From NCBI GenBank assembly GCA_964473825.1, contig CAYYQL010000006.1, positions 1 to 64,000 on the forward strand: a stretch of 64,000 nucleotides of DNA. The letters are read 5' to 3'. The notes below the pieces were generated by a model, which was not told the DNA's origin, ran no database searches, and saw only the letters and a program-made list of their open reading frames with translations. The first letter of the stretch is position 1; each line of letters starts with the position of its first letter. Positions 5,044 through 13,425 of this stretch are shown in pieces. A program made the position numbers and the translations under genes. This DNA comes from an uncultured archaeon. GTDB lineage: Archaea > Asgardarchaeota > Thorarchaeia > Thorarchaeales > Thorarchaeaceae.

Positions 5044-5366
5044 GGGATTCCCGTGCCCGAGAGCCTCGTCGGTATCTTCTTTGCCTAGGTTTCTTATAAC
5101 TGACCAGCATAGTCATATTCTTTACTAGTACAATTCGAGTTCGACAGAGGAAAGTTTACGCTAGCAGGAGCACACTCTTTGGCCTCATGTTCCAGCCGAT
5201 ATCTCACGACATCAACTGTTGGTCCCCCACACTCCACGTAGATGTGCACGATAGATTTACATAATATTTTATCTCAGCTCCTATTAGAACGGGTCTGAAC
5301 CGAGAATCCTCGTTGATGCTGGGATAAGGCATTGCCGCCACAAAGACCCATTCTGGGTCCTACCGA

Positions 5367-5753
5367 ATGGAGTGTTCTTGCCAGATGAAATCACAAGTAG
5401 CCGGGAGCTTGGATGAAGTGCAATCATGCAAATGCGGTAGATGTGGATGTGTCGTTGTATACTCCGGAAGCCATTGTATATTCTGTGAAATGACAATCGA
5501 GATGATATGCGATCTTCTCAGGGAGTTCTCTATGGGGGTTGAGGGCGTGGTGATTGTTGATATTGAAAAGGAATGCAGTTGTGGGTGCTCGGCAGAAGTG
5601 TCAGCTCTGCCTGCAGTGAGAGTCTGTGACGAAACAGTCGTCGGACTCCCGGACAGGACAGAACTCAGGGACCTGCTGATTAATGCGATGATGAGCGAGT
5701 GCTTCCATCAGACTTGGGACTTGATGGCACTCCATTGTTCTCCCCAAGTGTAG
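5367..5753 (+). CDS. Cys-rich thioredoxin-fold protein
   Basis: VVYSGSHCIFC (CxxC), VDIE, ALPAV (cis-Pro), VVGLP. Confidence 0.6.
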   Translation: MECSCQMKSQVAGSLDEVQSCKCGRCGCVVVYSGSHCIFCEMTIEMICDLLREFSMGVEGVVIVDIEKECSCGCSAEVSALPAVRVCDETVVGLPDRTELRDLLINAMMSECFHQTWDLMALHCSPQV

Positions 5754-9819: not shown

Positions 9820-10821
9820 TTGAGCCGTAGAGTACTAATCAGTTACGCAATCAGAGCAATCGGGCTGTTCTTATTCGTCTACATAGTCATGAGTATAGAC
9901 ATTCAGCAAATGGTTGCAGTGGCACTTGATTTGGACTTGGTTGTGATCCTCGTGGTGATGTCGATTGTCGCCACTATAGTTATTCTGAGAGGCATAAGGT
10001 GGCAGGTTCTTGGTGAAGAGATGGGATTGAGTTTCACAAGAAGAGAGGCTGTTGATGCGCTCTGTGTGTCTCAAGTGACTGGTCTGGTCCTGCCCGGAGC
10101 CCTTGGGGATCTGATTCGCGTTCCCTATCTTACTTCAAGGGGAAATTCCACGGATGTCGCAACTCTCAGCATTCTTGTAGACGCAATCACAGCATCCGTC
10201 ATTCCCTATTCCGTGGCCATACTTGCCCTCATGCAGATCTTTGAAATCCCTGTCACTGTGAGTTCGCTTCTGATTCCTGTTCTCTGGATTGCAGGACTTT
10301 ATCTAGTGTACAGGATTCTGAAGGCAACATTGTGGCCATGGATAGTAACGGCACGGCTCAGGAAACTGATGACATCCGGAATCACTGGCAACGTTCTCTT
10401 CGATATACCTACCACAATCCGGTCTATCGGACTGAAGAAGACAGGACTTGCGATAATCCTGGCAGCAAGCTCGTGGTTTCTGTATACGGTACAAGGATAC
10501 CTCCTCGCAACTGCCATGGGGTTGAATATAACATGGGACTATCTTGCAATCTCTCTTAGTGTTTCAATAATGCTCACAGCAATTCCCGTTTCGATAGTTG
10601 GTCTGGGAATTCGAGAGGGGACTCTGCTGTTTATGTTTGGACTTGTGGGCATTGAGGCGGTGACCACGGTTGCATTCTCACTTACTCTTCTCGTGACATC
10701 TCTGATTCCTTCCATCGCAGGTATCATCAGCTGGATGAGAGACCCGTTCCTAGATGCGGAGACCCATCCCATGAATCTCTCACTAGGAGCAAGTCCTCCA
10801 GTCAATTGCGAACAAGAGTAA
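9820..10821 (+). CDS. Lysylphosphatidylglycerol synthase TM-domain / flippase-like protein (UPF0104)
   Basis: RGIRWQ, PGALGDLIR, PVSIVGLGIREG; multiple TM. Confidence 0.85.
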   Translation: MSRRVLISYAIRAIGLFLFVYIVMSIDIQQMVAVALDLDLVVILVVMSIVATIVILRGIRWQVLGEEMGLSFTRREAVDALCVSQVTGLVLPGALGDLIRVPYLTSRGNSTDVATLSILVDAITASVIPYSVAILALMQIFEIPVTVSSLLIPVLWIAGLYLVYRILKATLWPWIVTARLRKLMTSGITGNVLFDIPTTIRSIGLKKTGLAIILAASSWFLYTVQGYLLATAMGLNITWDYLAISLSVSIMLTAIPVSIVGLGIREGTLLFMFGLVGIEAVTTVAFSLTLLVTSLIPSIAGIISWMRDPFLDAETHPMNLSLGASPPVNCEQE

Positions 10822-11223: not shown

Positions 11224-11393
11224 AACTGAAAGGCAGCGAGATATGAACAGATTTGTGGTTTCCGAGATTCGTTTAGATGCCTTCGTTGCAGAAGTATCAG
11301 GCCTCTATCAAATTGGCCAGCATACAGCGAACGGGGACACAATTTCAGTATAGGTGTTTGTGAGAATTAGCAGGAAATAATTGATAGAAGTAC

Positions 11394-11516
11394 TCATGTG
11401 GCTTCCCACGCGAGTACTTCTTCTCGGGTGATTACGTCTTCATGACGTTCTGAAGATGAGTCGCGCGCTTCTGTGGCAGATGCTCTTAGTTGATCAATGT
11501 CGTTATTCAAGGTCAT
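11394..11516 (-). CDS. Small peptide 4 (40 aa), divergent member of the peptide array
   Basis: MTLNNDIDQLRASATEARDSSSERHEDVITREEVLAWEAT. Its ATG directly follows the TAG of peptide 3. Shares MTxNND with peptide 3 and TEA with peptide 2. Confidence 0.45.
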   Translation of the reverse strand: MTLNNDIDQLRASATEARDSSSERHEDVITREEVLAWEAT

Positions 11517-11609
11517 CTACCTGTACAGATACGAGTAGGCAAGCGCCTGTGTTGACACTTCCTTCTTGTCCTTCTTTGGTCCGATTACACAGTCATTGTT
11601 GGTGGTCAA
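11517..11609 (-). CDS. Small peptide 3 (30 aa) of the Tyr-motif array
   Basis: TTG start 7 nt after GGAGGT; MTTNNDCVIGPKKDKKEVSTQALAYSYLYR*. Confidence 0.7.
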   Translation of the reverse strand: MTTNNDCVIGPKKDKKEVSTQALAYSYLYR

Positions 11610-11614
11610 CTCGT

Positions 11615-11713
11615 CTACCTCCGGTATGCAAATGCATAGCCAACAGCCTCAGTTGAAACAGCTATGGCCCTGTTCAGTTTTGCGTCGGACTCGTTTCTTG
11701 TGAAATGTGCCAA
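11615..11713 (-). CDS. Small peptide 2 (32 aa) of the Tyr-motif array
   Basis: TTG start 8 nt after GGAGGT; MAHFTRNESDAKLNRAIAVSTEAVGYAFAYRR*. Confidence 0.75.
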   Translation of the reverse strand: MAHFTRNESDAKLNRAIAVSTEAVGYAFAYRR

Positions 11714-11719
11714 CTGCTA

Positions 11720-11824
11720 CTACCTCCGGTATACATAGGCGTAGGCAACAGCCTCGACCTTCATCATTCGCGAGTCCAGATTCTTTCCAAGTGATTCCTT
11801 TCGGGTGTTCTTTGCTAGTGCCAT
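11720..11824 (-). CDS. Small peptide 1 (34 aa) of the Tyr-motif array
   Basis: ATG 6 nt after GGTGA; MALAKNTRKESLGKNLDSRMMKVEAVAYAYVYRR*. Confidence 0.75.
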   Translation of the reverse strand: MALAKNTRKESLGKNLDSRMMKVEAVAYAYVYRR

Positions 11825-11840
11825 TGTTTTTCACCATTTT

Positions 11841-11902
11841 TAGTTTGTTAAACAAACTATTCTTACGGTATTAGTTGTATACCTTTACCAATATAAAGGT
11901 TT
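11841..11902 (-). promoter_or_regulatory. Putative BRE/TATA promoter of the peptide array with two inverted repeats
   Basis: Minus strand AAACCTTTATATTGG; ACCTTTA-N6-TAAAGGT (11881-11900); TAGTTTGTT-A-AACAAACTA (11841-11859). Confidence 0.6.
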
Positions 11903-12310
11903 GCCTACCAAACTATCTATGCCCATATTGGTACATATGATGCACCTTAAACAGATTATACATTTATACATTGAACTGAAACTTGAACTGTCTGCAACCA
12001 CACAATCAGTTAGATGATCCAAGCACTCTGTGAGTCATCAGCACTCGTCGTGTGCCAGACTTGAGAGGGACAGAGGTCTCGAATCGCCACGAAATTAAGA
12101 TACTCCAATCAGAACTGTCTAGATCTGCAAAGGAAAGCGGAATCCATTTGGTCTATGGATCATCTTTTTCGCAGAGTGGTTTGTAATTGAGAACCGACAC
12201 CACCTAGGACATGCCGCCTTCCTCGATGCAAGTGAGGAGAGTATTCATACATAGCCGTTCAAGACATGGTTTATCGAATCAACTGCTTGCCGCTATATAG
12301 TTTGATACGC

Positions 12311-12366
12311 AAACGTTTATATTTGGAGCTGCAGACCTATACAGCTGTACAGAAGACTGTTCTGTA
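12311..12366 (+). promoter_or_regulatory. Putative promoter and palindromic sites of the wHTH regulator
   Basis: AAACGTTTATATTTGG; TACAGCTGTA (12340-12349); TACAGAA-N5-TTCTGTA (12348-12366). Confidence 0.5.
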
Positions 12367-12383: not shown

Positions 12384-13139
12384 ATGCGAATGAATGAAGA
12401 AGAAATCACCGACTCGTTGAAGAGCGCGGATGAGATTGAGTTCTACGACAGGGGAAAGATCCAGAACGAGCTCATATTTATCACGCAGGATGATAAGATG
12501 CAGGCTCTAGACGACCCTGTTCGGTTAGCCATAGTCACCGTTCTTCGCAAAGGCGTCCCTGACACCCTTACCACGAAGAGAGTAGATGAGGAAACAGGAG
12601 ATATAATCATACGACAACGCGAAGTGCAGCGTCATGCACTATCAGTAGTTGAAATAGTCAAGATGTCACAGGAGCATCGCGATGTGGAAGAGATAACAAA
12701 GAACCAAGTCTATCACCATCTCCCAAAGCTTGAAGACGCCGGTCTGGTTGTGAAATATTGCACGGCGAGAACTGGGAAACGGACTACGGACTATTATCGG
12801 CGCACGGCCAAGGGCTTTGTGATTGCTGCCGGCTTTCTATCAGCCGACAAGAAACAGCGAGAAAAGAAGTTGGACTTGCTTGTTGAGAGACTGGACAAGG
12901 TTTTCGGGGTAGAACTCTCCGAGGAGGAGGCCGGCGAAGTGGAGCGCCTCATAAGAGAGGAATGGGAGATTGAAACCAAGGGACGATCCAAAGTGGCAAA
13001 CATGATTTGCGGGGACGTTGTGGACAGCGACGTTCTGGATCTGTACAATTACCTGGTCGACTTGTGGTCCTTAAAGAATGAGCGGCTTCTTGAAATCAAG
13101 GAGAAGCTACGAAGTATAGTCTTCTCTGAAAGCGAGTGA
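12384..13139 (+). CDS. ArsR-like winged-helix transcriptional regulator
   Basis: ALDDPVRLAIVTVL...NQVYHHLPKLEDAGLV...YYRRTAK. Confidence 0.85.
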   Translation: MRMNEEEITDSLKSADEIEFYDRGKIQNELIFITQDDKMQALDDPVRLAIVTVLRKGVPDTLTTKRVDEETGDIIIRQREVQRHALSVVEIVKMSQEHRDVEEITKNQVYHHLPKLEDAGLVVKYCTARTGKRTTDYYRRTAKGFVIAAGFLSADKKQREKKLDLLVERLDKVFGVELSEEEAGEVERLIREEWEIETKGRSKVANMICGDVVDSDVLDLYNYLVDLWSLKNERLLEIKEKLRSIVFSESE

Positions 13140-13188: not shown

Positions 13189-13425
13189 TCAGCATTCGGC
13201 GCATATGTTTGTTTCCGTTTCGAGTACTCCCTCAATGGTTCTCAGTTTATCTACGACAAAGTTGCCCATGGCCTCATTACTCTTGAATTCTCCTTTAACA
13301 ATCAAATCATAGGCCCCAAAGAGGATGAAGGCCTCCAAAATTTCATCAAGACTCTTAATCTCATCAAGTATCTCCTTGTTTCGATCAGGCCTGACCTTAA
13401 GCATGATGTAGGCATGTAGAGACAT
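13189..13425 (-). CDS. Stand-alone Lrp/AsnC ligand-binding (RAM) domain protein
   Basis: AYIMLKV...LFGAYDLIVK...LRTIEGVLETET. Confidence 0.9.
   Translation of the reverse strand: MSLHAYIMLKVRPDRNKEILDEIKSLDEILEAFILFGAYDLIVKGEFKSNEAMGNFVVDKLRTIEGVLETETNICAEC

Follow-up and report, generated by a model that had tools for sequence, protein, structure and literature searches.

The studied element was a group of four small open reading frames (ORFs), P1-P4, on the minus strand (11394-11824) of a 64,000-nucleotide stretch of DNA, hereafter the window, from an uncultured archaeon of the family Thorarchaeaceae (GenBank assembly GCA_964473825.1, contig CAYYQL010000006.1). Based on all comparisons, it was concluded that the ORF pattern was far beyond chance, as the peptide family was present at four further loci of this genome and gave ~490 matches in 69 related genomes. 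Three of the ORFs were found to encode basic paralogs of one type, designated Y, and the last one an acidic tail peptide, designated T. Shine-Dalgarno (SD) sequences were written into the stop codon regions of the Y ORFs, and a covarying RNA hairpin covered the end of P4. The segment 11386-11915 was taken as one putative self-contained transcription unit of a micropeptide operon that is specific to one Thorarchaeota family. We proposed, with about an even chance of being right, that the locus as a whole is best explained as a regulated operon for trans-acting small proteins, which would dock a conserved helix on a partner.

An earlier interpretation made from the letters of this DNA (the sequence-only reading) had described an unknown, translationally coupled micropeptide family with no modifying enzyme nearby, and in these respects it held. 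Its suggestions of precursors of ribosomally synthesized and post-translationally modified peptides (RiPPs), of a leader peptide at this locus, of P4 as just a divergent paralog and of unrelated N-termini were not supported or had to be modified. The explanation of the P4 end by an RNA hairpin, the ancestral operator and the rewired promoter of the window lineage appear to be new here.

Distribution and coding status of the Y peptides

When all six frames of the complete 3.27-Mb assembly were scanned for the motif, ORFs of this type were recovered at four further loci (contigs C2, C13, C30 and C36). The ORFs at these sister loci had 27-35 codons and carried the motif 3-5 residues from the stop codon, and the total for the genome was 10 Y ORFs in five cassettes. 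The Tyr-stripe codon pattern occurred twice in the window, when 0.01 occurrences were expected.

The search of Asgard genomes suggested in the sequence-only reading was carried out with profiles. A first Y profile gave matches in 21 of 24 family genomes and in none of 16 from outside the family. A broader profile of 44 sequences matched 68 of the 76 family genomes, with ~490 matches in total and every one of the 16 genera represented, and it had no match in 224 genomes that belong to 29 further families of the Asgard phylum. The copies were dispersed, 5-12 per genome. Among the matches listed, all were open full-length frames of 26-91 amino acids (aa), mostly 31-45, with no internal stop. An exhaustive profile search, which covered 1.84 billion proteins, yielded 45 clusters, and 44 of those were stand-alone peptides of 29-63 aa. 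The names given to database matches identified the organism as Candidatus Thorarchaeota, which agrees with the lineage named in the sequence-only reading. A 90-aa database protein (P0069) spanned Y, T and sequence beyond them. It was rejected as a real fusion because Gln stood at both positions where the relatives have stop codons, and the entry is most likely a gene call made under another genetic code.

The Y consensus was composed of an N-terminal M-A-L-[AT]-x-N-N-R, a variable middle rich in Lys, Arg, Asn, Ser and Thr, the core Q-S-T-x-A-[LIV]-x-Y-A-Y, and one of three endings (x-Y-R-R, x-T-Φ-Φ-R or F-R-R), so that 3, 4 or 5 residues separated Y-A-Y from the stop codon, depending on the subtype. 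The C-terminal core was the most conserved part and the N-terminus was conserved as well. The N-terminal halves of P1-P3 had been called unrelated, which could not be maintained because the family start MAL-[AT]-x-N-N is conserved; P1 retained the whole of it and P3 a part. Lys and Arg made up 21% of the residues, and hydrophobic residues were confined to the last ~10 positions. The peptides were very hydrophilic, with an isoelectric point (pI) of 10.4 and a net charge of about +5. Neither a signal peptide nor a double-Gly or similar cleavage site was found in them.

All synonymous codons were used at the conserved Y positions, six for Ser (including AGY/TCN switches), four for Ala and five for Leu. 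The dN/dS ratios were calculated by the Nei-Gojobori method for the orthologous cassettes of three congeneric genomes. Values for Y ORFs were mostly 0.03-0.3, and the pooled value was 0.34 with non-independent pairs. Against their orthologs, P1 gave 0.07-0.29, P2 0.28-0.66 and P3 0.13-0.26. The frame, the stop codon and the SD site were kept in homologs, as anticipated for a coding family. The comparison showed all four frames to be open across genera and the Y peptides to be under purifying selection at the amino-acid level.

No described family was found, in agreement with the sequence-only reading. Pfam gave no match apart from a sub-threshold CreS_N match on one paralog, NCBIfam gave none for the peptides, the ESM Atlas returned no usable match, an Rfam scan of the locus was negative, and a search of the literature found no paper on Y peptides. 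An AlphaFold2 model of P1, built with the family alignment, contained a single helix at residues 7-32 with a mean predicted local distance difference test (pLDDT) value of 72. The block means were 88 for residues 21-30 and 80 for residues 31-34. On a helical wheel drawn from the residue frequencies, a single face would hold the conserved Ser, Ala, Leu, Ala, Tyr and Arg, among them two Ala spaced as Ala-x3-Ala.

Several known motifs were considered and rejected. The HbYX proteasome-activator motif requires a penultimate Tyr, which was present (P3, L-Y-R) in the window lineage only, the other endings being Y-R-R, F-R-R and Φ-Φ-R. The Glu position of a PqqA-like E-x3-Y was K, E, D or Q over the family, and the register was found by inspection to be unfit for PIP-box and similar motifs.

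Organization of the operon and translational coupling

The ORF listing recovered the four closely packed ORFs as first described, with gaps of 6, 5 and 0 nt, and the C-termini quoted for P1-P3 matched exactly. The similarity of P1 and P2 (31/36 nt) was found again as repeat D2 (36 nt at 86%), and all the proposed SD sites were present. The coordinates of these and other features are collected in the table.

Table. Predicted features of the peptide operon and its regulatory region in the window.
Feature	Position	Strand	Description
P1	11720-11824	-	ATG start, 34 aa, Y type, basic; E 1.7e-11 against the family profile
P2	11615-11713	-	TTG start, 32 aa, Y type
P3	11517-11609	-	TTG start, 30 aa, Y type, C-terminus L-Y-R; stop codon abuts the P4 ATG
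P4	11394-11516	-	ATG start, 40 aa, T-type acidic tail ORF, C-terminus E-E-V-L-A-W-E-A-T
SD-like GGTGA	11831-11835	-	6 nt 5' of the P1 ATG
GGAGGT of P2	11722-11727	-	Formed by CGG-AGG-TAG of P1
GGAGGT of P3	11617-11622	-	Formed by CGG-AGG-TAG of P2
3' RNA hairpin	11386-11421	-	Putative terminator or stabiliser; inverted repeat I3, then a T-rich stretch
TATA-like box TTTATATT	11890-11897	-	~65 nt upstream of the P1 start; invariant in three species
Operator O1 (predicted)	11897-11915	.	GTTTG-N5-CAAAC, abuts the cassette TATA box; kept in G002 and G001, present in G005 (L044)
Operator O2 (predicted)	11841-11859	.	Perfect palindrome (9-1-9), downstream of the presumed transcription start and upstream of the P1 SD
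Operator O3 (predicted)	12298-12316	.	GTTTG-N5-CAAAC, abuts a TTTATATT box facing the regulator gene; kept in G002
Winged helix-turn-helix (wHTH) regulator gene	12384-13139	+	251 aa, PadR/HTH_20/ArsR-like, divergent from the peptide operon

In the alignment of relatives, conservation of the window cassette extended from ~95 nt upstream of P1 to ~30 nt past P4. The cassette and its promoter were kept as a block in three related genomes (G001, G002 and G005), and the TTG starts of P2 and P3 were kept in three species. The sequence TGGTGAA before the ATG was kept in 5/5 cassettes of the genome.

Across genera, a cassette began with a promoter and one or, in some cases, two Y1 ORFs, followed by a shorter Y2 that ended in A-Y-F-R-R and by T, which ended in [ED]-[ED]-V-L-A-L-E-A-T. 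In the window cassette, T is represented by P4. Nearly all of the Y ORFs examined carried within their last 9 nt an SD of the GGAG or GAGG type that serves the following ORF; examples are CGG-AGG-TAG, AGG-AGA-TAG and CTG-AGG-TGA. The conserved Arg-Arg-stop was largely explained in this way, because the SD of the next ORF is embedded there. The comparative evidence supported the proposal of a co-transcribed micropeptide family, which would be coupled through these SD sites.

The acidic tail ORF and its hairpin

P4 had been regarded as a divergent paralog of P1-P3. It was found to be a distinct acidic tail ORF, and its conserved end coincided with an RNA hairpin. The hairpin, with a 12-bp stem, was formed by the last eight codons of P4, the stop codon and 8 nt of the 3' untranslated region. 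Its folding energy in the window was -24.1 kcal/mol (z = -5.0). Compensatory changes were observed at three stem pairs in 17 cassettes. A Leu-to-Trp change in P4 was paired with a synonymous Ala change in the opposite arm, and a TGA/TAA switch of the T stop codon covaried with the paired Leu codon. The stable stem-loop, the compensatory changes and the T tract together correspond to a 3' hairpin like that of an intrinsic terminator. The hairpin was followed by CTCTTTTT-type tracts in sister cassettes and by a weaker T-rich tail in the window. The window hairpin was not recognised by a scan for bacterial-type terminators.

The dN/dS of P4 was 0.44-0.91, with only the last 10 residues conserved, and T outside its conserved end evolved almost neutrally (0.3-0.9). 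T codons showed little synonymous diversity. Because of this low diversity and the near-neutral remainder, the conserved end of T was taken as an RNA element in the first place. The T frame was always open, its ATG always followed an SD, and the product was always acidic (pI 4.4, net charge -4); since the frame, the SD, the ATG and the acidity were all kept, the T ORF is probably translated. The structure model of P4 was of low to moderate confidence, and the complex of P1 and P4, predicted with family alignments, scored 0.02, a value that was not counted for or against an interaction.

T was missing from the C13 and C30 cassettes of this genome and from all operons in which Y ORFs precede a major facilitator superfamily (MFS) gene. 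The third ORF of the C30 cassette was acidic with no hairpin-forming end, and a tRNA-like sequence lay right after this cassette on the opposite strand (L003 ~5230-5400, G000). A mimic of the bactofilin C-terminus was considered for the end of P4 and rejected, as bactofilin tails end in V-D-Q-L-P-x-P-acidic and are dissimilar.

Shared operator of the sister cassettes and the bactofilin gene

A promoter of ~95 nt was common to 4/5 cassettes of the genome and to most cassettes in other genera, and was conserved better than the coding part. It consisted of a GT[CA]ACA-N3-TGTGAC palindrome, two GTGAC/GTGGC boxes, a TTATATA box and GTGAA before the ATG. The palindrome-plus-TATA unit was searched for in 25 genomes together with a reversed-pattern control. 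It was found in 14/15 family genomes and 0/9 others, and the control pattern never occurred. A long form of the unit preceded Y cassettes. A short form preceded a gene of a 410-440-aa bactofilin-domain protein, mostly once per genome, and that gene was usually located 3' of a gene for a 104-aa HTH_45/Sso10a-like wHTH protein. At class-B loci, the bactofilin gene was downstream in 8/9 cases and the HTH_45 gene upstream in seven. In the window genome, the unit (two mismatches or fewer) was present only at the four sister cassettes and at the single bactofilin gene.

The bactofilin ortholog, the palindrome and partly the HTH_45 gene were also present in other Asgard families that have no Y peptides, and in the two high-quality genomes of the family with no Y matches that were checked (G012 and G021). 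The operator, being present without Y peptides, is therefore ancestral and was recruited by the cassettes. In G000 (contig C9, L073:1170-2842), the module comprised a 104-aa HTH_45 gene, the palindrome GTCACAAATTGTGAC with a TATA box, and a 414-aa bactofilin gene; modules of this type, palindrome included, occurred in other Asgard families without the peptides (L086-L088). At one locus of G005 (L065, contig C29, ~69190-69230, minus strand), the short-form promoter preceded a gene for a multi-pass membrane protein, not bactofilin, with an acidic N-terminus and internal repeats. This gene is a possible further member of the regulon.

Promoter and regulator of the window copy

The window cassette belongs to a different, older paralog lineage, found also in G001, G002 and G005, in which the shared promoter has been replaced. 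Its predicted promoter is the TTTATATT box. The divergent regulator matched Pfam HTH_20 (6.7e-8, 32.8 bits, cut-off 27) and PadR (2.8e-6, 27.7 bits, cut-off 27), and its matches to ArsR-type NCBIfam models were weak. Its ortholog was located beside the same type of cassette in G002 and G005, and not in G001.

The palindromes O1 and O3 had the same geometry relative to their TATA boxes. The GTTTG-N5-CAAAC pattern occurred three times in the 3.27-Mb genome, with all occurrences within 11841-12316. Because about three copies are expected by chance anywhere in the genome, the signal lies in their clustering within 470 bp. The PadR/ArsR-like protein is thus a candidate for local control, as a repressor or an activator, of both its own gene and the peptide operon.

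A 78-aa stand-alone Lrp/AsnC ligand-binding (RAM) protein with no DNA-binding domain was encoded just past the wHTH gene (13189-13425, minus strand). On the other side, a gene for a 333-aa LPG_synthase_TM protein (lysyl-phosphatidylglycerol synthase/flippase-like; 9820-10821, plus strand) was convergent with the operon, and this synteny was seen in G001 and G002.

Genomic neighbours and the link to an exporter

Orthologs of one MFS_1/MFS_3 gene were present in 39 of the 77 family genomes searched, in six genera. At 29/30 loci, 1-3 Y ORFs were located directly upstream of the ortholog, with 0-40 nt between the Y2 stop codon and the MFS start, and 26 of these loci also carried the operator upstream. 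The N-terminal tail of the MFS protein was acidic and rich in Ser and Thr, like P4; no homology between the two was detectable by profile-profile comparison. P4 was rejected as a relic of this tail, as the profile-profile probability was 0.14% and the common traits were the acidic composition and an MT start. A second, unrelated MFS_1 gene of 486 aa was found directly 3' of Y ORFs at four loci in three genera (L010, L012, L013 and L015).

The flanking genes were otherwise unrelated housekeeping genes, some of them syntenic across genera (URO-D, PolX, flavodoxin and HDAC). The most frequent Pfam families among the neighbours were URO-D, PolX, EamA, MFS and flavodoxin, and the window copy had LPG_synthase_TM, methyltransferase and wHTH proteins around it. 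A Pfam scan of 103 genes flanking ~30 cassettes found no recurrent radical-SAM, P450, YcaO, lanthipeptide, peptidase or ABC-exporter family. The observation that no modifying enzyme adjoins the peptides was thus extended from the window to these cassettes. The RiPP-like role put forward with it was disfavoured, because no such enzyme was enriched nearby.

Proposed mechanism and alternative explanations

It was proposed that the operon would be transcribed from the TTTATATT box under the control of the divergent PadR/ArsR-like regulator acting through three GTTTG-N5-CAAAC operators, with O1 at the TATA box, O2 before the SD and O3 at the promoter of the regulator itself. Termination and reinitiation from ORF to ORF would then give roughly stoichiometric amounts of the peptides, and the products would act in trans as stand-alone small proteins. 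Each Y peptide would present a basic tail followed by a short helix, and the face formed by Ser, Ala, Leu, Ala, Tyr and Arg, with a small-xxx-small Ala pair, would dock on the partner. The likeliest partners would come from the membrane/cytoskeleton regulon to which the family is wired elsewhere, namely through the bactofilin operator and the Y-coupled MFS protein, and the window copy would be a paralog rewired to its own local regulator.

Several observations weigh against this proposal. The evidence for it came from sequence comparison and computed models, and the binding of the regulator to O1-O3 was deduced only from the geometry of the sites. The window copy did not carry the operator shared with bactofilin. 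No ortholog of the linked MFS gene was found in the window genome or its genus, where the best match was 25% identical and had no Y ORF upstream. P4 may have no function as a peptide, given that the hairpin explains its conserved end and the remainder is near-neutral. The P1 model reached only moderate confidence (a mean pLDDT of 72 over 34 residues).

The Y ORFs could instead encode cis-acting leader or arrest peptides. The nascent C-terminus would act in the ribosomal tunnel near the stop codon, and the paused ribosome would cover or free the embedded SD, thereby setting the translation of the next ORF (Y, P4 or, elsewhere, MFS), while ribosomes that enter the hairpin on P4 would adjust termination or the stability of the mRNA. 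Bacterial precedents for stop-codon and leader control are ErmCL (PMC5499644) and PepNL, which arrests at a stop codon (PMC11890864). Such control would account for the focus of conservation on the last ~13 residues by the stop codon, for lengths of 27-38 aa that fit the tunnel, for the SD of the next ORF within the last codons and for the P4 stop codon inside the 3' hairpin, and it would fit the Y ORFs that adjoin the MFS gene by 0-40 nt from stop to start in 29/30 loci. However, most cassettes, including that of the window, had no long gene 3' and were followed only by a micro-ORF and a terminator, so the leader peptide suggested in the sequence-only reading lacks a conserved same-strand target gene at this locus, although Y ORFs do precede MFS in other genera. 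The distance from the core to the stop codon varied from 3 to 5 residues by subtype, a variation not usually seen when stalling is fixed at a single codon. The N-terminus was conserved as well, and 5-12 dispersed copies per genome are ill-suited to a purely cis-acting device. An arrest function was kept under consideration because of the MFS adjacency and the SD-in-stop design, and was judged rather unlikely. The opposite charges of the products (pI 10.4 and +5 against pI 4.4 and -4), the fixed gene order with translational coupling, and a T frame that stays open and acidic despite sequence drift would also suit a polycation Y that is harmful or binds strongly, for example to nucleic acid or membrane, and is neutralised by the co-translated acidic P4 as in a toxin-antidote or storage pair. 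Yet T was missing from many cassettes (C13, C30 and all Y-MFS operons) and its sole conserved segment was explained by RNA structure, which makes such a pair distinctly unlikely.

A modified or exported product, such as a Tyr-rich RiPP or a signal or antagonistic peptide matured by an enzyme encoded elsewhere and exported via MFS, was held to be very doubtful. In its favour, aromatic cross-linking enzymes act on substrates that resemble the Tyr-x-Tyr core, the prochlorosins likewise have many dispersed precursor genes, and an MFS_3 transporter of the "secretion effector" type lies directly downstream in six genera. Against this stand the 103 flanking genes with no recurrent RiPP enzyme, peptidase or ABC exporter, the conserved core and variable middle, which reverse the usual conserved leader and variable core, the very hydrophilic peptides (net ~+5) with no signal peptide or double-Gly site, and the 10 Y genes of this genome, which has no MFS ortholog. 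That the similarity reflects a non-coding repeated DNA or RNA element was given almost no probability. The 31/36 nt shared by P1 and P2 and the RNA element at the end of P4 could be cited for it, but hundreds of copies included none listed with an internal stop, and the stop codons examined stood at a conserved position. The locus gave no Rfam match, and starts and SD sites were conserved. This explanation was rejected because of the use of all synonymous codons at conserved residues, with AGY/TCN switches of Ser, the dN/dS well below 1 and the conserved TTG starts.

With the trans-acting operon retained as the preferred explanation, a wider and unlikely speculation can be stated. The Y peptides might be the first archaeal sensory nascent-chain regulators or Asgard-specific small-protein switches. 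Either way, the Tyr/Ala helix would couple an ancestral bactofilin-cytoskeleton regulon to MFS export, the orphan Y-Y-T cassettes would be tunable reservoirs acting in trans, and ribosomes translating P4 into the hairpin would set the fate of the mRNA.

Significance and comparison with known systems

Asgard archaea are the closest prokaryotic relatives of eukaryotes, and small proteins are almost unexplored in them. The family described here escapes standard annotation but is retained throughout an entire archaeal family, with 5-12 copies in each genome. Its architecture is compact, with an SD written into Arg-Arg-stop and a putative terminator into the last ORF codons. Only the bactofilin gene has the same control site, together with the exporter operon in 39/77 (half) of the searched genomes. 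These features offer entry points to regulation in Thorarchaeota through two predicted operator/regulator pairs, to small-protein and transporter biology, and to the question of whether archaea use nascent-peptide control.

The divergent gene with identical palindromes abutting both TATA boxes resembles autoregulated wHTH regulators of the PadR/ArsR type. In contrast to those, the target here would be a micropeptide operon rather than an efflux or detoxification gene, and the operators are predicted. The Y family is like the prochlorosins in that its short paralogs are numerous and spread through a single genome. In prochlorosins, the leader is conserved, the Cys-rich core is hypervariable and the enzyme is ProcM, whereas Y peptides have a conserved C-terminal core and no enzyme near ~30 cassettes.

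We know of no archaeal example of an arrest or leader peptide. TnaC in bacteria has a short ORF upstream, a conserved C-terminal pattern at the stop codon and a reachable SD, as do the Y ORFs. The same likeness holds for ErmCL (PMC5499644) and PepNL/NanCL (PMC11890864). In contrast to these arrest peptides, Y ORFs occur in numerous scattered copies, with a conserved N-terminus and a variable distance from core to stop codon, and in most cassettes there is no long gene for them to regulate.

The psm-alpha operon of Staphylococcus aureus, which encodes phenol-soluble modulins (PSMs), is similar in its short length, the several paralogous peptides of 20-35 aa that it encodes in tandem, the lack of signal peptides, the helical nature of the peptides, a dedicated transcription-factor site and a linked exporter. 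Like it, the cassettes consist of tandem short ORFs free of signal peptides under one predicted promoter. PSMs are amphipathic, membrane-active and exported by an ABC transporter, and have no sequence relation to Y. The Y peptides did not share their amphipathic helix or homology (no Pfam or NCBIfam match, 21% Lys+Arg). They are polycationic and hydrophilic, have a short conserved helix at the C-terminus, and are encoded in 5-12 dispersed archaeal cassettes per genome with an acidic ORF or an MFS gene 3'.

The 30-50-aa peptides of the pairs AcrZ-AcrB, MgtS-MgtA and MntS-MntP, as well as KdpF, bind a larger membrane protein, and some are encoded beside it or co-regulated with it. Such partners are mostly single-copy and many are transmembrane, whereas the Y peptides are soluble, basic and multi-copy, and are kept in genomes with no linked MFS gene. 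In our view, a small-protein partner of a transporter is nevertheless the most likely functional class for the Y peptides.

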